A stretch of DNA of 60,714 bases from a virus (taxonomy: Duplodnaviria; Caudoviricetes): IMG/VR virus record IMGVR_UViG_3300010354_000094, positions 1 through 60,714 of that record. One strand, 5' to 3'. A program made the position numbers and the translations under genes. Within the stretch, counting starts at the first letter, position 1. Each line of letters starts with the position of its first letter. Positions 1 to 17,300 of this stretch are shown in pieces. The notes beneath the pieces are model-generated. The model was given only the letters and a program-made list of their open reading frames with translations. It had not been told where the DNA came from and ran no database searches.

Positions 1-276
1 AGCGTTAGGGTCTTTAGCAGAGGCGGTTGTCCGGTACCTCCATCCCCGTCTTCATTACAACGGCGGTCTTACAAATATACGCTATCACATTTGTAAAACG
101 TGCTCTATCAAGAGCGTCTTTTTAGCCTTTAATCCTTTTCAAACAACTAAATCACAGCATTTAAGTGATCTTCATCCTTACGGGTAGTAGTTGAGTCCTT
201 GTTTTGGCGACAAGATTCCGTCCCTGCGATACGATTGTCCAGGTATAGGGCGCACGATATTAGCCTGCGCTAGCCT
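1..276 (-). ncRNA. Putative large structured non-coding RNA (3' part runs off window)
   Basis: No ORF and richer in GC than the flanks. Consecutive stems at 250-270, 222-250, 198-214, 144-193 (enclosing 151-169 and 176-183), 102-115 and 69-96. G-U pairs and a GUAA (GNRA) tetraloop work only on the minus strand. Confidence 0.65.
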
Positions 277-711
277 TTAACCAATTAATTTGCCTTTGAT
301 ATGTGAGCCATGTACACGAACAGATATCTGTCCGTTATAATATTCGTCTGATTCTAATACTTTTCTTGTGAATTGTTCTCGAGCTTCTATATAACTACAT
401 TCTGCTTTTGATTTACAGTAATATAATATTTCTCTATAAAATTTGTCTGTGCCTAATTGTTCTACGTCTTTGTTTAGATGATCATTTGAGCCATAATATG
501 TTTGCCAGTCCGAGTCTATTTTTGATTTAATACGTTTCTTTTTCTTAGTGCCGTTTTTAAGTTTTACTGTTTTGTAGCTTACTTTTGAAAATTTACTTAA
601 TTTTTTGCCAATATATTTTTTGCCAGTGACTGTATTTGTTATGAGATAAACAAAACCAATACAGTCATCTGGAAGTTCATTAATTATCTGATTTTGATAA
701 TACCAGGACAT
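277..711 (-). CDS. Stand-alone GIY-YIG family nuclease
   Basis: GFVYLITN...KKYIGKK motif, downstream YYGS and conserved E/YN residues. 144 aa, with no obvious C-terminal DNA-binding extension. Confidence 0.8.
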   Translation of the reverse strand: MSWYYQNQIINELPDDCIGFVYLITNTVTGKKYIGKKLSKFSKVSYKTVKLKNGTKKKKRIKSKIDSDWQTYYGSNDHLNKDVEQLGTDKFYREILYYCKSKAECSYIEAREQFTRKVLESDEYYNGQISVRVHGSHIKGKLIG

Positions 712-714
712 TGA

Positions 715-912
715 TCATTTAGCAGTCTTGGCTTCTTTACGAGCTGCTTTTTCTGCGGTAATCTCATTTCTTCTTGCTTTAACAGCCTTAGAAATTTCTG
801 CTAATGCCTTACGAGCCCTAGTTCCTGCTGCTGCATTTCCACTAGAGAATTTTTCATCTTCTTTCAAAAATTCTTCAAAGAGTTTTTGTAGCTGTACTGT
901 TGTGTTGTTCAT
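715..912 (-). CDS. Histone H1-like (Hc1 family) small basic protein
   Basis: KFSSGNAAAGTRARKAL...K..R matches the Hc1-like signature; K/A-rich tail. Confidence 0.7.
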   Translation of the reverse strand: MNNTTVQLQKLFEEFLKEDEKFSSGNAAAGTRARKALAEISKAVKARRNEITAEKAARKEAKTAK

Positions 913-1207
913 TCTTTTTTCCTTTTGGTCTTCCTGTTTTTTTAGGATGCAGTTTTCTATACGCCGCTTCCTGCTTTCTTCTTTCTATATCTGCTTTTTT
1001 AGCCGCTTTTGCTTCTGCATATACTAATCTACACTGTCTGTATAGTTCAGTACTGTCTTTCACCATCTTCCTACTGGCGTTACGTACCTCTAAACCATAT
1101 TCGTAATTTCTAGGAGCCCTCATAAATCGTAGATGAGAATTATGTAAGTCAACAATATTGTTGACAACACGATTGTATAACTCCTTAAATTTGTCCATTT
1201 CAGACAT
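875..1207 (-). CDS. Hypothetical basic helical protein
   Basis: ORF in operon between gp46 and Hc1-like gene; K/R-rich C-terminus (KKTGRPK). Confidence 0.6.
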   Translation of the reverse strand: MSEMDKFKELYNRVVNNIVDLHNSHLRFMRAPRNYEYGLEVRNASRKMVKDSTELYRQCRLVYAEAKAAKKADIERRKQEAAYRKLHPKKTGRPKGKKNEQHNSTATKTL

Positions 1208-1212
1208 TTTTG

Positions 1213-3000
1213 TTAAGCTGCCTCTATTACATCAACATCGTTTGAGTAGCTGGTAAATCCATTTTCTTTAACAACTTTTAAAACGTTGTTAACTCTACCA
1301 ACTAGTTCGTCTTTGTGTGATATTAAGTATATATTCTTATTTCTCTCCCTAGCCATTTTTTTCAAAACGGCTAATCCTGCTTCTACTCCTGCGGCATCCA
1401 TGCCTGCATCTATTAACTCATCAATAAACAATAAATTAATATTTTGATATAGACTTTCCCAAACATCTCTAAATGCAAAACTTAAAGATAGTATAAGTCG
1501 ATTTCTTTCGCCTCTGCTAAGGTTGTCAAAGTCTAAGTCTTGTCCTAACTGTGTAATTTCCACAGTAAGGTCGTTTAAAAATACAACCTTATGAGGTAAT
1601 CCTAGCTTGTCAATGTAATATGCCAATCTCTTATTAAGATAAGTCAAATTTTGATCAATAATTTTCTTTCTAATAAAGCTATCTTTATTGGTTAATAACT
1701 TTAATAAAAATTCTTGATGATCTTTAAGCTTTGTTAAATTGTTAACAGAACTCCAATCAATCTCTTGAATGGCTGTTTTCTTTAACTCTTCGATCTGTTC
1801 CTGATAAGGATTGTTTTCTTGACTTTTCTCTACCAATGCCTTTTCTAAATTACTAAGATTGTTTTTATGACTTAATGCCTCTGCTTCGGTTTCATAAAAA
1901 GTATTGGGCTTTGCTCCTTGCTTTCCAATTTTTTCAATTTCATTAACTACAAGGCCGTAATCATTGACTACTTTCAAAGCATAAGTTTCTGCATCCTGTT
2001 TATATTTTAGTGCTTCATCTAACATTTCTTTGTGTTGATGATCGTGAAGCTCATGTCCGCAGGCATGACATTTGTGATCTTGTAATTTTTCTACTTCGGC
2101 TACATATTTTTTTACAGTCTTTTCGGCCTGTGTCAACGCAGTTTCTAATGTTGCCTGTTGCTTTTTTAGGCCTAATAATTTTTTATCATTTTCTAACCAT
2201 GTCTTTAAAGATGCATGTGCTAGTATTTCTGCTTCTATATCTACAGATTCTAAATTTACAATAGCCTTTCCTAGGCTTTCTAATTCCTGGTCATGTTTAT
2301 TTGACCAAGCAGAGCTTTTTAATTCTAAGCTATTGATGCTTTTTTGAATGTTTTCATTGGCAGATTTTATCCCGTCAATTTTAAATGTTTCTACTTGGAT
2401 TAGATCTTTAGTGTTTTTAATTTCTATTTTAAGCTTTTCAGATTTTTCGCTGAGTATAGTTATACCTAACAGTTGTTCAATTACTTCTCTCTGATCAGCA
2501 GACTTCATGCTTAGAAATGGTTCTGTGTAAGTATTTAAAGCTACCAAATGCCTAAACATTGTAGGACTCATTTCTAGTAATTGATCTATGAACTTTTGTG
2601 TTTCTCTGCTATCGCCCTGACTTTCGTCGTCCTCATTAGAAGACTTTTGCTCATTATCGTCGACAAACAACTTCATAACATTTGGTTTACGGCCTCGCTC
2701 TATCCTATAGAGATTTGAATTTTTTTCAAATTCTACCGTTACCAGCATATTCTTACCGTTAGTTTTGTTTATCAAATTTTCTTTTTTGATATTAGTTAAC
2801 GCAGTACCATAAAGGCCGTAACATAGTGCATTAACAATAGTAGTTTTGCCGGTGCCGTTTCTACTACCGCTGTCGTCTCCGCCTAGGTCTAAGTTTTCAC
2901 CTAACACTAGTGTTAAAAGTTCTTTGTCGAAATCTACTGCCTGAGTCTGGTTACCAACAGATAAAAAGTTTTTAACACTGATAGATTTTATTTTGATCAT
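1213..3000 (-). CDS. Recombination endonuclease ATPase subunit (T4 gp46 / SbcC / Rad50-like)
   Basis: Walker A NGTGKTT, zinc hook CHAC, coiled coils, signature LSRGE, Walker B LLFIDE, ISH motif. Confidence 0.95.
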   Translation of the reverse strand: MIKIKSISVKNFLSVGNQTQAVDFDKELLTLVLGENLDLGGDDSGSRNGTGKTTIVNALCYGLYGTALTNIKKENLINKTNGKNMLVTVEFEKNSNLYRIERGRKPNVMKLFVDDNEQKSSNEDDESQGDSRETQKFIDQLLEMSPTMFRHLVALNTYTEPFLSMKSADQREVIEQLLGITILSEKSEKLKIEIKNTKDLIQVETFKIDGIKSANENIQKSINSLELKSSAWSNKHDQELESLGKAIVNLESVDIEAEILAHASLKTWLENDKKLLGLKKQQATLETALTQAEKTVKKYVAEVEKLQDHKCHACGHELHDHQHKEMLDEALKYKQDAETYALKVVNDYGLVVNEIEKIGKQGAKPNTFYETEAEALSHKNNLSNLEKALVEKSQENNPYQEQIEELKKTAIQEIDWSSVNNLTKLKDHQEFLLKLLTNKDSFIRKKIIDQNLTYLNKRLAYYIDKLGLPHKVVFLNDLTVEITQLGQDLDFDNLSRGERNRLILSLSFAFRDVWESLYQNINLLFIDELIDAGMDAAGVEAGLAVLKKMARERNKNIYLISHKDELVGRVNNVLKVVKENGFTSYSNDVDVIEAA

Positions 3001-4010
3001 AAATTATTATAAATTTCTAATAGAACCTTTGAATTAATAGTTTCGGAATCTACATTAAGAAGTTGTTCTGTTACAATTTGATCTACACTTTCAAATGCAG
3101 TATCCGGACTATCGTCCGTGCCTGTTTCTATATTATTTTTTTCTTGAATAAGACTAATTTCTCTTATATCGTGTTCTTGAATATAAGTTTCTTTGATAAA
3201 ATTAGCCTCTTCATACGTAATATCAATGTCAAGATTAACCCTGAGATACATTTTATTTTTCATAATCTTATCTTTTTCGTCGATAAGTTTACTTAAGGTT
3301 ACAGTTCTAAATTTAGGAGCATCAGGCCAGGCAATAAATTCCGGCTTTCCACCCCACTCCATAGTCATCATACCTCGATCGTCGTCCCATGTATCTGCAA
3401 AGTTATGAGGAAAGGCATTGCCTATATACCAAACTTTACCTTGATTTTGACGTTTATGAAAGTGTCCGCTAAACACGTACTCGGGATGAGTAAAATCGTT
3501 AGCCTTAAGCTCTCCATGGTCCGGCATTTGAACCATTGCGTTCATATAGAATAACGGCAATTCAAAGTGGCCGAATATATACTTGGCTTTTATATCTTTA
3601 ACTTTTTTCCATTCGTCACCTACTAACCACGGTACTAAGGCTACATTGTCTATGACTTCTACTTTTTCAACCACAGTGACGCCTGGAATATGTCTTCCAA
3701 ATATACTACTATGAATATCACGTTTATCTTTATAAAATAAATCGTGATTTCCTGGAAACCAATAAAATTGTTCAAAGGCGGCACCTAATTTTTCTAAACA
3801 TCGGATACTAGTATCTAACGTAATCAAATTAATGCTATTTCGATTGTGGTGCCAATCTCCGAGAAAAATACAGGTTTCTGCTCCCTGTGCCTTTGCAGTA
3901 TCGATAAACCAATCTACAAAATCTTCGCAATCTTGATTATGTGTTTGACTGTTTGATTTTAATCCAAAATGAATATCAGTAAAACAAGCAACTTTCTTGA
4001 ATAATGCCAT
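2997..4010 (-). CDS. Recombination endonuclease nuclease subunit (T4 gp47 / SbcD / Mre11-like)
   Basis: Metallophosphoesterase motifs DIHFG, GD, GNHD, GHFH; adjacent to gp46-like gene. Confidence 0.95.
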   Translation of the reverse strand: MALFKKVACFTDIHFGLKSNSQTHNQDCEDFVDWFIDTAKAQGAETCIFLGDWHHNRNSINLITLDTSIRCLEKLGAAFEQFYWFPGNHDLFYKDKRDIHSSIFGRHIPGVTVVEKVEVIDNVALVPWLVGDEWKKVKDIKAKYIFGHFELPLFYMNAMVQMPDHGELKANDFTHPEYVFSGHFHKRQNQGKVWYIGNAFPHNFADTWDDDRGMMTMEWGGKPEFIAWPDAPKFRTVTLSKLIDEKDKIMKNKMYLRVNLDIDITYEEANFIKETYIQEHDIREISLIQEKNNIETGTDDSPDTAFESVDQIVTEQLLNVDSETINSKVLLEIYNNL

Positions 4011-4030
4011 CAAAAGACTCTCCTACTATT

Positions 4031-4060
4031 AGTATAGTGTTTTTTTAACAGCAAGGTCAA
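4031..4060 (-). promoter_or_regulatory. Sigma70-like promoter for gp47/gp46 operon
   Basis: TTGACC-18 nt-TATACT on minus strand, followed by AGGAG RBS. Confidence 0.55.
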
Positions 4061-4965
4061 GTCTCTTCCTCTTCATCTTCGACGGTAGTTTCTTCGCTTT
4101 TTGGCATACGCATATTTTTGTACATCTCCGCTTGTCTAGCAGTTTCCTCGGCAAATTCCTGAGAAGTCTGCCTAGTTAAGCTAGGAGTTAGGCCGGACAT
4201 TTCTAATAAGTCGTCTCGGATGTTTTGATTTTTCTTTTCTAAATTTAATATTCGAGTAAAACTATTAGTAACTGCGGCAGTGTAATAAGCAAATGGATTT
4301 TCTGATTTTGATTCGTCGAATTGTAGACCAATCTGGCTTAACTGTAAAATAGCCTGTCCTCTCATTTCTTCAATATAAGTGTAACCTCGCCAGTTACTAC
4401 GCTGAGCATACCGTTCACTTAATTTAATAAACATACGTCCAAGATTTTCTGTAATCCTGCCGTGGTCCTTGCTAAACTGACCTTTGTCTAAAGTACCTTT
4501 CCAATGGCTTTTTCCAACGCAAACTAGTTCGTCGGCATCATTAAATTTCCAATGTTGAAATGGAGGAAAATTTACTTTGTCATGACTATCCGCTGTAGTT
4601 TTAGTAGTTTTTTTCCTACCAGGTGCTAAAGGAATATGCTCAAAAGTCATTATTCTAATTACAATGTCTGTCTTTTGAATTTTTTTGTAGTCTGGGGTAA
4701 CATCGGTAAGTTTAACTTTTTTATCTCCTTGAGCTCTAGCTATCATAAAAGCTTCTAGACCTAGTCTTTTGGCTCTATTTCTTTTAGCTTCTGCTACTGT
4801 TCTAATGTTTATTTTGTCCAGACTAGTTAGAATAATATCATGTTGACTATATTCGGGACTGGTAAAACTGCTGTAAGTACACTTACTCTTATGTATTTCT
4901 GCTAGTAAATCTCTATTATTAAGGTATTTTACTTTCCGCCCAGTTGGGGATGTTATTGTTGTCAT
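4057..4965 (-). CDS. Phage late-transcription sigma factor (T4 gp55-like)
   Basis: N-terminal YLNNRDLL, NWRGYTY..EM and FDESKSENPFAYYT motifs; acidic tail; sits next to gp47/gp46 as in T4-like phages. Confidence 0.8.
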   Translation of the reverse strand: MTTITSPTGRKVKYLNNRDLLAEIHKSKCTYSSFTSPEYSQHDIILTSLDKINIRTVAEAKRNRAKRLGLEAFMIARAQGDKKVKLTDVTPDYKKIQKTDIVIRIMTFEHIPLAPGRKKTTKTTADSHDKVNFPPFQHWKFNDADELVCVGKSHWKGTLDKGQFSKDHGRITENLGRMFIKLSERYAQRSNWRGYTYIEEMRGQAILQLSQIGLQFDESKSENPFAYYTAAVTNSFTRILNLEKKNQNIRDDLLEMSGLTPSLTRQTSQEFAEETARQAEMYKNMRMPKSEETTVEDEEEET

Positions 4966-8369: not shown

Positions 8370-10435
8370 TGTCAGTTATAAAAAGATCACCGTTTAAATT
8401 ACCTTCTCCCGGGCCTTATATTGCAATTATTCAGAGTCATTTAGATCCTACTTACATGGGAGGAGTAGAAGCAGTAATTATTCAAGGAGCCGGCATCGCC
8501 GCTAAGCCTCCTTATAACAAAAGTCAAACAGTTGTATTACATTATCTTAGTCCATTTTATGGAGTAACTTCTAAAGAATTCCAAGGTACTGATCCTAAAG
8601 AGTTCAACGATGTTCAAAAAAGCTATGGAATGTGGATGATACCCCCAGATATAGGTACAAGGGTAATGTGTATTTTTATAGATGGGGACACTAATCAGGG
8701 CTACTGGATAGGATGTGTACAGGATCGTTGGCAAAATCACATGGTACCTGGAATTGCCGCTAGTACTGATGTTGCATGGAAACCAGGACAGCAAGATGAG
8801 TATGGGGGTGTTGCTTTTGTTCCCGTCGCAGAATTTTTAAAAACAAAAGAGTCAGAAGATCAACCTCAAAAATTACATAGTAGTCCTAAACCAGTGCATC
8901 CTTTTGCAGATCGATTAAAAAAACAAGGACTGCTAGCTGATACAATACGTGGAACATCGTCAAGCAGTGCTAGAAGAGAAATCCCTAGCGCAGTGTTTGG
9001 AATAAGCACACCGGGTCAGGTACAGTTAACTGGCCGCCGTGCGTTTGTAGGTTACAAAGATAAAGATAATTATGAAATACCTATTAGCAGAAATGGCGGA
9101 CATTCTTTTGTCATGGATGACGGAGATGTTAATGGAAATAGTAATTTAGTTAGAATAAGATCAAGTGCCGGACATCAAATATTATTACACGACACTTCTA
9201 ATCTAATATACATTGCTAATGCAGATGGCACAGCTTGGATAGAAATGACCGCTCAGGGAAAAATAGATATTTTTTCTCAAGATAGTGTCAGTATTCATAC
9301 AGAAGCAGACTTTAATTTTAGAGCAGATCGAGATATAAATCTAGAAGCTGTAAGAAATATTAATATTAAAGCAGGTAATAATTTTACTTTAAATGCAGGT
9401 AATGATTTTAATCTACGTGCTGCTGTTACAGGAAAAATATTTGTAGATGGTGCATTAGAATCTTATGCAAAAACTGATTTAAAGCTAACAGCAGGGAATA
9501 TACATCAATATAGTTTAGGTACAATTAATTTGCTTTCAACCAAAGGCGGAACTAACGTTATGGTCTATGATGGAGATTATAAAGTCACTGCTAAAACAAT
9601 ACATCATAATGGCCCTAAAGCAGCAGATGCTGATTATGCCGCAGAAGCTATTCAGAATACTACTAAGCTCACTGATTATTCTATACCGTCAACTTCTAGC
9701 AGTCAAAATTGGAGTGAGCGTTATTCTTCAGGGGAAGCAGTATCCTTTTTACAACGAGTACCAATGCATGAACCTTGGAGCCAACATGAAAATTTAGATC
9801 CAGTAAAGTACACTGCGAACAATACTGATAGCTCGGCGGCCCGTGCGCCCTCCGGATCCAGTTCGGGATCATCTTCTAATAGCGGATCTGGTGTAAACGC
9901 ACCAGTACCGGGGACAAATCCTAATACACCGCCCGATTGGACTAAAGATACTGGATTTTTAAACAGAGTAAAAGCATTAGCTACTAAATTTAATGCAGAT
10001 TATCTTGACTTTTTAACGGTTATGATGGTAGAGACAGCGAGCACTATGAGTCCTAGTATAAGAAATCCTAGAGGAAGTGCTACAGGTCTAATTCAATTTA
10101 TTGAAAGTACAGCTAAAGGATTAGGTACAAGTACGAGTCAACTAGCTACTATGACCAGAGAACAGCAGATGCATTATGTTGAAGAATATTTTAATAGGCA
10201 ATATAAACAATTGATTAAAGATCCTAGCTTGAATAACATTTATATGGCTGTGTTTAGTCCTGCAACTGTAGGAAAACCTGATAATTCTCCATTGTATTCT
10301 AGAGATCAAGGTAGAAGCTACAGTGACAATATTGAATATGATCGAAACGGAGATGGTGTTATAACCAAAGCCGAGGCCTGCTCTGCACTACCTACCTTTA
10401 AAAAGAAGGTCAAAAAAGCTCTAGGTATTAGTTAA
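8369..10435 (+). CDS. Baseplate central spike (gp5/VgrG-like) with C-terminal lytic transglycosylase-like domain
   Basis: OB-fold SYGMWMIPPDIGTRV, GHSFVMDD/GHQILLHD, beta-helix repeats, Ser/Gly linker, then VE...ATGLIQF lysozyme-like domain. Confidence 0.85.
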   Translation: MSVIKRSPFKLPSPGPYIAIIQSHLDPTYMGGVEAVIIQGAGIAAKPPYNKSQTVVLHYLSPFYGVTSKEFQGTDPKEFNDVQKSYGMWMIPPDIGTRVMCIFIDGDTNQGYWIGCVQDRWQNHMVPGIAASTDVAWKPGQQDEYGGVAFVPVAEFLKTKESEDQPQKLHSSPKPVHPFADRLKKQGLLADTIRGTSSSSARREIPSAVFGISTPGQVQLTGRRAFVGYKDKDNYEIPISRNGGHSFVMDDGDVNGNSNLVRIRSSAGHQILLHDTSNLIYIANADGTAWIEMTAQGKIDIFSQDSVSIHTEADFNFRADRDINLEAVRNINIKAGNNFTLNAGNDFNLRAAVTGKIFVDGALESYAKTDLKLTAGNIHQYSLGTINLLSTKGGTNVMVYDGDYKVTAKTIHHNGPKAADADYAAEAIQNTTKLTDYSIPSTSSSQNWSERYSSGEAVSFLQRVPMHEPWSQHENLDPVKYTANNTDSSAARAPSGSSSGSSSNSGSGVNAPVPGTNPNTPPDWTKDTGFLNRVKALATKFNADYLDFLTVMMVETASTMSPSIRNPRGSATGLIQFIESTAKGLGTSTSQLATMTREQQMHYVEEYFNRQYKQLIKDPSLNNIYMAVFSPATVGKPDNSPLYSRDQGRSYSDNIEYDRNGDGVITKAEACSALPTFKKKVKKALGIS

Positions 10436-14382: not shown

Positions 14383-17300
14383 TGGTTTCTAATTACAAAG
14401 GTCGTAGGTCGTCGGATTTACTTCCTGCATTTTTTAAAACAGAAAAAAATAGAAAGTTCTTAACCAGTACTATTGATCAGCTAATTAATCCTCCGGCATT
14501 AAGTAGGATTGATGCATTTGTTGGTAGTAAGAACACGCCTAATTATAAGTCAACTGATCTTTATGTTGCAGAAACTAATCCGTTGAGGCAGCAATATCAA
14601 TTAGAACCTGCTCTTATAGTAAAAAATGAAACTCAAGAAATTAAAAAGACTCTAGCATTTGACGATTTAATTAATCAGTTAAACTCATTTGGTGGAACTG
14701 TTTCAGATTTAAACAGGTTATTTCAACCACATTACTATTCTTACGATCCAAAAATAGATTGGGACAAATTTATTAATTTTAGAGAATACTATTGGTTACC
14801 AACTGGCCCTTCAACAATTACAGTAACAGGTGAGCAGGTAGCTCCGATATCTACTATTTCTGTAACAGATGCAGAGGACAAGATTCAATTTGTATTTGGG
14901 GGTTTAACAACTAGCGAAAAATTGGTTTTATATCGTGGTTATACCTATGTGTTTGAAGTTGATTCTATACATAATTTTTATATAAAATATACCAATCAGG
15001 TCGGACCTGCTGACCAATATACAAACAATGTTTCTAATAACGGAGTTAAAAAGGGTCAAATAATTTTCACTATTGATTGGACCACTCCAGCAAGATTATT
15101 CTATACATCAAATGATGAGCAACTTAGCACAGGCGAAATTATTATTAAGGAGCCTCAAGAAAATTCAACAATCAATGTTGAAGATGAGATCGTTGGCAAG
15201 ATAAATTACACTTCTTCTAACAACATTAAATTTATTAATGGTTTAAAGATTAGATTTGGGGGAACAGTATTTCCTGAATACTATCGAGATTCTGATTTTA
15301 TTGTTGAAGGTGTTGGTGACTCTATCAAACTTATCAAGTTTTCTTTATTATCTACACCTGATGTAATTGCTGATCTTGTTAATGATAAGTTCGATGGAAC
15401 TAACTTTGATCAGTTTCCTTTTGATAACTTTAAAAATATTCCTTTAGTTCCCGAGTATATTACAATTAACAAAGCTAGTAAAGATCTAAATCCTTGGACT
15501 AGATATAATAGATGGTTCCACTCAGATGTAATAAAAGCATCTGCTGAATTTAATAACGCAGTACCTGACTTTCCTCAAGAATACAGAGCCACTAGACCTA
15601 TTATTGAGTTTAAAGCAAACTTGCAACTTTATAAATTTGGTGATACAGCCATAGGGAACATTGACTTAATTGATAATATGACAACTGATGCTTTTGGTAT
15701 TGCCGAAAGCGTTGATGGTTATTATATTGATCATGTAAGAGTTGAAGAAGGTTATAGAGTTATATTCAATGCTGATTCAGATCCTCTAGTAAGAGGTAAA
15801 GTTTTTAGAGCAACTTATTCTAAAGTTTGGCGTAAAACTATTAATCCAGTAACCGGACAACTTGTAGTTAGTAATACAGAATATGATTTAAAATTAAATC
15901 TAGAATTAGAATCAGATGCTCCAGTTGAAGGCTCATCGATACTAGTTACCAAAGGTAATTCAGATGCCGGTAGTAGTTATTATTTTGATGGAACACTTTG
16001 GATAAAATCCCAACAAAGAACTTATAGGAATCAACCCCCGTTATTTGACCTGTTTGATAAAGACGGCAATAGCTATGGGGGAAAATATTACTTAACAAAC
16101 TTTACAGGTAATAAGATATTCGGATACGGAATAGGCACAGGAACCCCTGATCCTGTTTTAGGATTTCCCTTACAGTATAAGAATGTAGGAGTTGAAGGTA
16201 CTTATTTGTTTAATAACTATTTTTCAAATCAGGAGATTATAGTTGTTGAAAATAATGAAACAAAAATTGTACCTAGCGAAACTTCTTTCTTTAGAATTAA
16301 TGATAGCCAAACAATTTTTGCAAATATTTGGGTAGTAGCTGAAGAGTATGAAATTCCTAAATTAGATAATGGCCTGTATGAAGTTCCATTAAATTTGACT
16401 AATAACCCTAATAACGCCAGGATCTCAGACTTTACACTAACCGAATTGTCGGATCATGTTAAAACAATGGTATCCAGGGATTCTAAATTTGAAGGTCTAT
16501 TTCCAGGTCTAAGTAATTTAAAAGATTTACCAAATATAGCAAAATACGGTAATAGAATTATTTCTAATATAAATTCTATGGCCTTCCCCTTACACTTCAT
16601 TGCTGATAAAGAAAATAATGTTATTGATGCAATAAAATTAGTATCGGACCAATATAATCAATTTAAATTCAGTCTTATTAAATCTTTCTTAGAAGTAGAT
16701 AGGACAGATTCTCCTATAGATGCACTTGATTCTATATTAACTAAACTTAACCAAAATAAGACTACTACTTTTCCATATTTTAATAGTTTAATGTTGGGAT
16801 ACGGAACCGGTGCCATTGTAAGGAATTATAGAGTTACTGATTCTAGAAATACTACATATTCTTTACCTAGTGATTATTCTCCTTCGGATGTTGCAAGCAG
16901 AGCAGTTTACATCTACTTAAATGGAACTCAACTAATAAATGAATTAGAATATAAAATAAGTGCTTATAGTAGTAATTTTGAAATACTTGTTCCGTTAGAA
17001 AGAGGAGATTTAATTCTTGTTAAAGATTATAAATCTATTGAAGGTAACTTTGTACCACCTACTCCTACTTCGTTAGGATTATATCCAAAGTTTGAACCAA
17101 AAATTTATCTTGACGATACCTATGCAGGAGATCCGGTAAATGTAATCCAAGGCCATGATGGTAGTTTGACTGTGGCATTTAATGATTACAGAGATGATAT
17201 TATATTAGAATTTGAAAAGCGTGTTTATAATAATATTAAAATTTCTTATAACATCGATATTTTTGATATCAATAAAATTTTACCAGGTGCTTTTAGATCT

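Follow-up and report, generated by a model that had tools for sequence, protein, structure and literature searches.

When a large structured RNA directly follows a small nuclease gene, do the two work together, or is the RNA an element in its own right? The question is raised by one end of a viral contig (Duplodnaviria; Caudoviricetes; IMG/VR record IMGVR_UViG_3300010354_000094; 60,714 nucleotides (nt)), the whole of which was analysed and is referred to here as the window. At this end a minus-strand gene for a 144-amino-acid (aa) GIY-YIG nuclease is followed by a densely folded region that runs off the contig edge. An earlier note, made from the sequence alone, had proposed that the nuclease forms a particle with this RNA or, alternatively, that the RNA is an independent large phage non-coding RNA (ncRNA) in the manner of GOLLD or ROOL. 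It is the alternative that fits the data best. The window encodes, from about position 290 to position 1 of the minus strand, the first ~280 nt of an ncRNA of ~440 nt; the first 141 nt of it are the Rfam family RF01718 (Polynucleobacter-1), and the adjacent mini-nuclease is not its obligate partner. The RNA is probably an autonomous, trans-acting large RNA of mobile elements, the phage copy forming the tail of an early-type operon and the linkage to the GIY-YIG gene reflecting inherited gene order.

A catalogued motif is the front end of a larger RNA

The elements at issue are the following.

1-290, minus strand: 5' two-thirds of a large ncRNA, read from 290 to 1 and cut by the window edge (alignment with 92 loci)
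141-275, minus strand: match to RF01718 over the whole model (104 bits against 37)
277-711, minus strand: GIY-YIG gene, 144 aa, single domain, SegE-type (PF19835), its final codons overlapping the RNA leader

The comparison with Rfam that the earlier note had suggested identifies positions 141-275 (minus strand) as RF01718, model positions 1-141 being complete (E 9.1e-23; 104 bits, where the gathering score is 37). Nothing else in the window matches Rfam, and RF01718 is likewise the only match on the RNA in 10 of 10 related loci; the models for GOLLD, ROOL and OLE have no match at gathering score in the window or in these 10 loci. The note had set against its own proposal of a particle the case of a known family unlinked to the nuclease: the family is known and, as far as bacteria are concerned, it is also unlinked. 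The table row on the motif in Weinberg et al. (2010; PMC2864571) describes it as a likely RNA of 'Burkholderiales, fresh water/estuary'; the row's second column has 'y' and its third '?'. The habitat of the copies found here agrees with that row, whereas most of these copies lie on phage contigs.

Related viral loci were chosen by a conserved motif pattern (at least 120 contig stretches), and all counts on these RNA-chosen loci (119 informative, 92 aligned) are among the matches listed. The 141 nt of the model are only the 5' third of the ~440-nt RNA in 92 of 92 aligned relatives: conservation and covariation continue for ~300 nt further, in these relatives and in the bacterial copies, and the long RNA has further helices, three pseudoknots and matched repeats. 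Counted from 32 nt before the search pattern, the core of the RNA, which closes with the second repeat, has a median length of 360 nt in the relatives; with the terminator hairpin included the median is 436 nt. A leader of ~15 nt precedes the Rfam start and is conserved whatever ORF (open reading frame) comes before it, which implies that the RNA overlaps the final GIY-YIG codons in the window. Because the window is the complete IMG/VR record (rated 17% complete), the rest of the RNA was rebuilt from relatives; in these, the ~160 nt lying past base 1 hold two matching repeats, a hairpin, tail hairpins and a terminator. The portion past RF01718 is absent from Rfam yet equally conserved and covarying. 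Judged from sequence, the family model is incomplete and the window is still a member of the family. The true size and fold of the family, its abundance in jumbo-phage contigs, its bacterial island context and its matched repeats would seem to be new, in that no paper on any of them was found in the open-access literature.

Covariation supports the fold

Window positions 1-284 were aligned with 92 distinct related loci covering the region (alignment A1), and helices were derived from mutual information and pair statistics and then counted on A1. The resulting structure has 91 pairs in 19 helices, three of which are pseudoknots, and the RNA thus has at least 19 helices. Standard pairs fill 95.7% of its paired cells, against 78.6% in 500 shuffles, none of which (0/500) reaches the observed value; sliding the partners by one to three columns drops pairing to 36-41%. 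The test of covariation, another suggestion of the earlier note, thus favours a conserved RNA, with 68 of the 91 pairs varying on both sides and a covariation score of 0.477 compared with 0.172. In the relatives, the RF01718 helices P1, P3, P4 and P5 are 96-100% paired, with compensatory changes on both sides. Within the window the structure comprises the following.

262-275, minus strand: pseudoknot PK0, GGC (275-273) with GCU (264-262) in the P1 loop; 90.3% paired
250-270, minus strand: P1, GCGCA (270-266) with UGCGC (254-250); 99.8% paired, 3 of 5 pairs vary on both sides
224-242, minus strand: P2, CUGGACA (242-236) with UAUC.CAG (231-224), from the Rfam alignment; 96.0% paired
198-214, minus strand: P3, CUUGU (214-210) with ACAAG (202-198); 96.2% paired, 6 of 6 pairs vary on both sides
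144-193, minus strand: P4, closing a junction, CAACUA (193-188) with UAGUUG (149-144); 99.3% paired, four pairs vary on both sides
183-176, minus strand: CC-GUAA-GG hairpin within P4, with the pair C187:G173
170-150, minus strand: P5 within P4, GAUCAC (170-165) with GUGAUU (155-150); 98.7% paired, four pairs vary on both sides
102-115, minus strand: hairpin H4, GCUCU (115-111) with AGAGC (106-102); 96.0% paired, 4 of 4 pairs vary on both sides
68-97, minus strand: long hairpin H5, UUUACAAAUGU (97-87) with AUAUUUGUAAG (78-68); 10 of 10 pairs vary on both sides
1-84, minus strand: pseudoknot PK2, H5 loop UAGCGU (84-79) with ACGCU (5-1); 97.2% paired, 6 of 6 pairs vary on both sides
26-61, minus strand: pseudoknot PK3, GUUGU (61-57) with ACAAC (30-26); 97.6% paired, three pairs vary on both sides
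7-47, minus strand: H7, GGGG (47-44) with CCCU (10-7); 5 of 5 pairs vary on both sides
40-20, minus strand: H8 inside H7, GAGGU (40-36) with GCCUC (24-20); 97.4% paired

Most of these stems had been read from the single sequence in the earlier note, and the family alignment bears out GCGCA/UGCGC, CUUGU/ACAAG, CAACUA/UAGUUG, the CC-GUAA-GG hairpin, GAUCAC/GUGAUU, GCUCU/AGAGC and the 10-bp stem UUACAAAUGU/AUAUUUGUAA (96-87 with 78-69). By contrast, its CCCU-AUAC/GUAU-AGGG stem (222-250) gives way in the family to another register, that of P2. The contention that several G-U pairs work only on the minus strand also holds, as shown by A1 columns 128:155 (90 of 93 rows) and 306:318 (93 of 93). P2 itself has one C-A mismatch in the window, and five of its seven pairs are invariant in the pattern-selected rows, largely by construction; in the protein-selected set described below, pair 47:64 is C-G in 4 rows and U-A in 37. 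Elsewhere, pair 109:125 of the P4/P5 region switches between C-G (79 rows) and G-C (14 rows), and in PK0 (columns 10-12 with 21-25) pair 11:24 does so between G-C (75 rows) and A-U (14 rows). PK2 joins columns 255-260 to 411-417, its partner ACGCUA lying ~150 columns downstream with the final pair past the window edge, while the ACAAC partner of PK3 sits in the loop of H8.

Matched repeats in the 3' domain

Past base 1, two direct repeats flank a conserved hairpin (A1 columns 431-446 and 495-511), as in locus L008. One example of the repeats is ACUCGGAUGAUG ... AUCUGGAUGAUA, with GUGUGAC before each repeat. The repeats differ between lineages and match within each RNA. Comparison of the copies at three variable positions shows agreement in 90 of 92 rows (eight haplotypes); in the sample chosen by the protein they agree in 55 of 56. 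These identity pairs are among the strongest signals of mutual information. Bacterial copies carry other repeat sequences, again as matched pairs. A search of the surrounding 3 kb gave no consistent reverse complement of the repeats, and in three whole phage records the patterns for a repeat complement matched only the repeats themselves and, in two near-identical records, one extra 11-mer.

The working part of the RNA likely lies in this domain, just past the window, where two single-stranded copies of 8-10 nt flank a hairpin and change together. They may be two equal binding sites for one partner, which could be a nucleic acid supplied in trans or an invariant UUGUUUGA strand pairing with each copy in turn. 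On sequence grounds this strand could indeed pair with either copy through A-U and G-U pairs; such pairing would tolerate purine changes in the repeats yet does not explain why they match. Repeats that change in step are an unusual feature and one that is directly testable.

The mini-nuclease and its linkage to the RNA

The protein encoded at 277-711 matches PF19835 (SegE_GIY-YIG, E 2e-32, residues 3-129). Y22, Y33, G35, K37, Y72, S75, E109 and N126 are invariant in 48 diverse sequences and R93 is kept in at least 90%; the conserved Y, G, R, E and N residues we take to have the catalytic roles of their counterparts in I-TevI. As the earlier note had described it, this is a minimal GIY-YIG nuclease with a lysine-rich insert: AlphaFold2 predicts one compact domain (predicted local distance difference test, pLDDT, 96.3) where residues 40-66, the insert, make up a long beta hairpin. 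The best meaningful Foldseek matches are catalytic domains of I-TevI (1ln0, 1mk0; probability 0.80-0.91, with weak E of 0.13-0.36), and a sequence search of the PDB with the GIY-YIG profile gave no matches. The protein therefore shares with Seg-type homing endonucleases and I-TevI a Pfam family and its best structural matches, but differs in having no DNA-binding domain, in folding as one domain of 144 aa and in its beta-hairpin insert of ~27 residues. It also matches phrog_447 (E 1.3e-35), which is labelled 'NAD synthetase'. As the Pfam match, conserved residues and fold all say GIY-YIG, this label, on phrog_447 and in many GenBank phage records, appears wrong and looks like a propagated mislabel. 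Relatives are abundant, with 8000 of 8000 scored metagenome candidates at E <= 1e-5 and 2119 cluster representatives at E <= 0.001, most of 130-165 aa.

Seen from the RNA, the nuclease is a near-constant neighbour. Among the 120 RNA-chosen viral loci, a homologue stands directly upstream on the same strand in 110 and 0.7-1.9 kb upstream, with other ORFs between, in six; four have no homologue, one of them with too little upstream sequence. The nuclease is thus upstream in 116 of 119 informative loci, and the RNA occurs without it in three. The proteins at these loci are 65-90% identical to that of the window, which points to one clade with a shared gene order.

Seen from the protein, the linkage is looser. 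Eighty metagenome loci were chosen by a protein 70-90% identical to that of the window, 77 of them with at least 150 nt downstream, and the RNA was called by nhmmer and by the Rfam gathering score (the strict pattern caught only 11, as the motif varies). The RNA is adjacent in 55 of the 77 and lies 0.2-1 kb downstream in five; in the remaining 17, whose proteins are 70-78% identical, neither nhmmer nor Rfam finds it, and in nine of 12 such loci examined an ORF of 350-400 aa overlaps the GIY-YIG stop codon. Homologues of the protein occur in 514 cultured phage records, 339 of them from Synechococcus phages. RF01718 is found in none of the four tested (Melnitz, P-HM1, phiN3 and PA5oct), and in Melnitz, P-HM1 and phiN3 other genes closely follow the homologue. 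Conversely, the GIY-YIG gene is absent from all 26 bacterial-type RNA loci described below. With the protein occurring without the RNA (17/77 loci) and the RNA without the protein (26/26 bacterial-type and 3/119 phage loci), the nuclease-RNA particle that the earlier note had put first is not supported, and the result corrects a tempting reading of the mini-nuclease as the obligate partner of the RNA.

The slot beside the RNA is not always filled in the same way. In loci L057 and L095 a 172-aa PD-(D/E)XK endonuclease (PF24608, E 1e-27 and 3e-28) replaces the GIY-YIG gene before the RNA, which in L057 is a divergent form with a bacterial-like leader. Elsewhere (approximately L214 4418-4900 and L230 565-1120) an ORF-free gap of ~480-550 nt follows the GIY-YIG gene in the usual RNA slot; these two gaps have no RF01718 and no nhmmer match, and may hold a different or very divergent RNA.

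Copies in bacterial islands

The RNA family has two settings: a freshwater jumbo-phage clade with T4-type recombination genes, and sporadic islands in the chromosomes of freshwater Burkholderiales. A looser pattern applied to bacterial genome contigs returned 36 stretches, of which 29 were RNA-like and seven due to chance on inspection. Of the 29, three are phage-type copies binned into metagenome-assembled genomes and 26 form a distinct bacterial type, with the same long architecture (three are truncated) and in some cases on contigs of 0.7-2.4 Mb. Their hosts are mostly Comamonadaceae, Limnohabitans, Polynucleobacter and other Burkholderiales. RF01718 was confirmed in 5 of 5 bacterial genomes re-searched (85-102 bits). 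Among 141 species genomes of one genus, 16 carry it above the cut-off, in varied places and in one or two copies per genome, which indicates that the RNA is accessory in bacteria. In the middle domain the phage RNAs are strongly unlike the bacterial ones.

A divergent DUF6641 gene lies 170-250 nt upstream of the RNA at all but one of the 26 bacterial-type loci (25), and in at least 10 a catalytic-domain-only tyrosine recombinase of 188-218 aa lies 0.4-0.5 kb downstream, several loci ending before that point. On the DUF6641 side are ordinary chromosomal genes and on the other an AAA ATPase and ORFs of no known family; the RNA sits at the border of small islands that carry an integrase and an AAA ATPase. 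Homologues of DUF6641 and of the recombinase were not found in the window or in 120 viral loci (for DUF6641, 0 tblastn matches). DUF6641 and its neighbours match no PADLOC defence model; its predicted structure (pLDDT 84.5) has no Foldseek match at E <= 0.001 (best 0.28), the Atlas returned only its own family, and no paper on DUF6641 was found in the open-access literature. The layout with the RNA between a divergent DUF6641 gene and a small recombinase can be seen in L159, L175, L172, L173 and L174, and one genome has two same-strand copies 18.3 kb apart.

A probable autonomous RNA and its rivals

What, then, does the RNA do? In the reading that we consider likely, it acts alone and in trans as a folded RNA comparable to GOLLD, ROOL and OLE; it would be neither cofactor nor guide of the neighbouring nuclease, and the adjacency would be a gene order inherited in one phage clade. 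Kretsch et al. (2025; PMC12286853) present GOLLD, ROOL and OLE as large, ornate RNAs of bacteria and phages. As a working analogy, the present RNA is like them in being large, heavily structured and carried on phages or mobile DNA and by their hosts, and differs in being shorter (~440 nt) and in having no relation to them in sequence or structure. The motif catalogued since 2010 as a 141-nt candidate is the front end of a triply pseudoknotted RNA of ~440 nt, which is common both on contigs of freshwater jumbo phages and on the sporadic islands of Polynucleobacter, Limnohabitans and their relatives. It is a well-supported candidate to join the few large structured RNAs whose function is unknown, and an alignment of more than 140 distinct copies is ready for structure work.

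Several observations weigh against an RNA that acts alone. A nuclease upstream in 116 of 119 RNA-chosen loci, with its stop codon inside the RNA leader, is the layout expected of a functional pair, and the presence of small, domain-only DNA enzymes beside the RNA in both of its settings could exceed coincidence. Three whole phage records (262-355 kb) hold no partner for the repeats, host genomes not having been searched, and the role proposed for the repeats is conjecture. The folding energy of the single sequence is not significant on the minus strand (z -1.38; 16 of 200 shuffles fold as well; plus strand z -0.18), so that support comes from the family model and covariation. Finally, the sole support from an RNA library is one 207-nt contig of a ~93% identical relative, covering window positions 1-179, from one freshwater metatranscriptome, which could be DNA carry-over.

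A partnership of RNA and nuclease would have a precedent in layout, since HEARO and omega RNAs, which work with IscB or TnpB, are structured RNAs that adjoin a small nuclease gene or run into its end. If the RNA bound the GIY-YIG protein and guided or activated it, the repeats serving as guide-like segments, the tight same-strand junction, the nuclease in 116 of 119 informative loci, a lysine-rich beta hairpin that in the model could bind nucleic acid, repeats that vary by lineage yet match within each RNA, and bacterial copies near a recombinase that lacks an N-terminal DNA-binding domain would all fall into place. However, no HEARO match was found in Rfam, and the protein is GIY-YIG rather than RuvC or HNH. 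An obligate co-occurrence, as would be expected of an omega-RNA system, is missing too, 17 of 77 close homologues (70-78% identical) having no RNA nearby and bacterial RNAs having no protein. Moreover, other genes come directly after the more distant homologues, the RNA is in none of four cultured phage records, and in six phage loci other genes intervene between nuclease and RNA. The repeats are variable and matched; neither the surrounding 3 kb nor three whole phage records showed a guide-target relation for them, host genomes not having been searched. We regard such a particle as very improbable. A wider version, in which the RNA is a programmable recognition module whose two identical, lineage-specific repeats of 8-10 nt read a nucleic-acid target for the GIY-YIG nuclease in phages and for the catalytic-domain-only tyrosine recombinase in Burkholderiales islands, earns just as little credence from us; were it true, enzyme families for which no use of guides is known would be at work in an RNA-guided system. 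The pairing might instead be a selfish one, the GIY-YIG protein being a free-standing homing endonuclease that targets the conserved RNA gene beside it. This would suit a fold and Pfam family shared with Seg and I-TevI type enzymes, the PD-(D/E)XK endonuclease that occupies the slot in L057 and L095, and homologues that stand in varied contexts in cultured phages, once beside other annotated homing endonucleases. Yet a protein of 144 aa with one domain and no DNA-binding domain, present in 116 of 119 RNA loci at 65-90% identity with catalytic residues kept, is conserved within its clade rather than patchily distributed as homing genes are, and nearly all cyanomyoviruses carry a member of the family (339 records from Synechococcus phages), all of which makes homing improbable.

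The bacterial copies suggest another possibility, namely that the RNA works there with DUF6641 in an island module, for instance one of defence or addiction, and that the phage copy mimics this RNA so as to neutralise or hijack the module during infection. A phage-made pseudo-ToxI antitoxin RNA is such a decoy against ToxIN. The divergent DUF6641 gene in 25 of 26 bacterial-type loci, the accessory distribution of the RNA (16 of 141 species genomes), its place at the edge of islands with an integrase and an AAA ATPase, and its carriage by phages that have no DUF6641 (0 tblastn matches in the window and 120 viral loci) are what a decoy would lead one to expect. On the other hand, DUF6641 and its neighbours match no PADLOC model and its structural model has no match to a solved fold (best E 0.28), no evidence was found that these phages infect island-bearing hosts, and the middle domain diverges strongly between phage and bacterial RNAs; a decoy is accordingly unlikely. 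Far less credible still is a cis-acting element, be it a 3' untranslated region that stabilises the upstream mRNA, a riboswitch or 5' leader belonging to the next gene, or a region serving as replication origin or primer. The 'y' and '?' in the table row of Weinberg et al. (2010) could be taken in its favour, if the two columns stand for 'cis-regulatory' and 'switch', and the RNA does lie at a boundary of early-type and structural genes. Against this, the genes downstream of the RNA differ between loci in family and strand, which argues against a 5' leader, and a terminator-like hairpin intervenes; the closest constant gene at the bacterial loci lies upstream in divergent orientation; and an RNA of ~360 nt, with its three pseudoknots and its many unpaired bases that never vary, goes far beyond the needs of an mRNA end or a primer.

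Genomic context and transcription

The RNA is preceded in the window by the following genes.

2997-4013, minus strand: Mre11/gp47-like gene (Pfam match)
1213-3000, minus strand: Rad50/gp46-like gene (Pfam match)
875-1207, minus strand: 110-aa ORF (ORF list)
715-912, minus strand: 65-aa Hc1-like ORF (PF07432, chlamydial histone H1-like, E 7.8e-13)
715-4013, minus strand: the upstream same-strand genes, gp47-like through Hc1-like, probably a transcription unit ended by the RNA

The order gp47-like, gp46-like, small ORFs and GIY-YIG is common to most related loci, and a 65-aa ORF fills the slot before the GIY-YIG gene in many of them too. The GIY-YIG ORF starts 3 nt past the stop of this preceding ORF (715-912), which is complete; a group I intron with an embedded homing gene was considered and rejected on this ground and because Rfam gives no group I intron match, in line with the view of the earlier note that the ORF is not intron-borne. 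From the GIY-YIG stop codon (279-277) to base 1 the minus strand has 276 nt without an ORF of at least 30 aa and the plus strand only short ones (1-96, 2-187 and 27-125), so the statement of that note that no ORF lies between stop and edge is sound for the coding strand.

The phage RNA would be the last element of a transcript running through the gp47-like, gp46-like, small and GIY-YIG genes, and in relatives this unit would end at a terminator-like hairpin, which covaries and separates the RNA from the downstream genes. The final GIY-YIG codons are shared with the conserved leader, which leaves no room for a promoter before the RNA; a consensus scan of positions 1-4200 for promoters and terminators found no promoter-like site just before it and no enrichment of such sites overall (16 against 13.9 +/- 4.1 expected). 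An apparent plus-strand terminator at 100-117 is the H4 hairpin read backwards, and a late-promoter-like word after the terminator, TATAAATA, occurs in only 24 of 92 rows, so that no claim is drawn from it. The stretch or part of it occurs in 20 listed sequencing runs, 10 with half its words or more, mostly of freshwater or plankton DNA. Four runs were examined, and a second of these has contigs over the GIY-YIG ORF; contigs alone carry no information on RNA ends or levels.

Among cultured phages, PA5oct-like jumbo phages come closest in gp46 (50.5% identity), and two RNA-bearing relatives of 345-355 kb are rated 99-100% complete. In a blastn search of window positions 1-711 against 50,697 cultured phage records the RNA part has no match, the sole match being 61 nt inside the ORF, to Bacillus phage G (two records). 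ARAGORN found no tRNA or tmRNA in window positions 1-3000. PA5oct itself (L176) has a 664-nt unannotated gap (8868-9530) between small ORFs near its gp46-like and baseplate-hub genes, and no Rfam model comes near a gathering score in it. In another related locus (L017), positions 14865-14940 of the plus strand match the Rfam family freshwater-2 (RF02980; 56.2 bits against 49.9) ~11 kb from the RNA.

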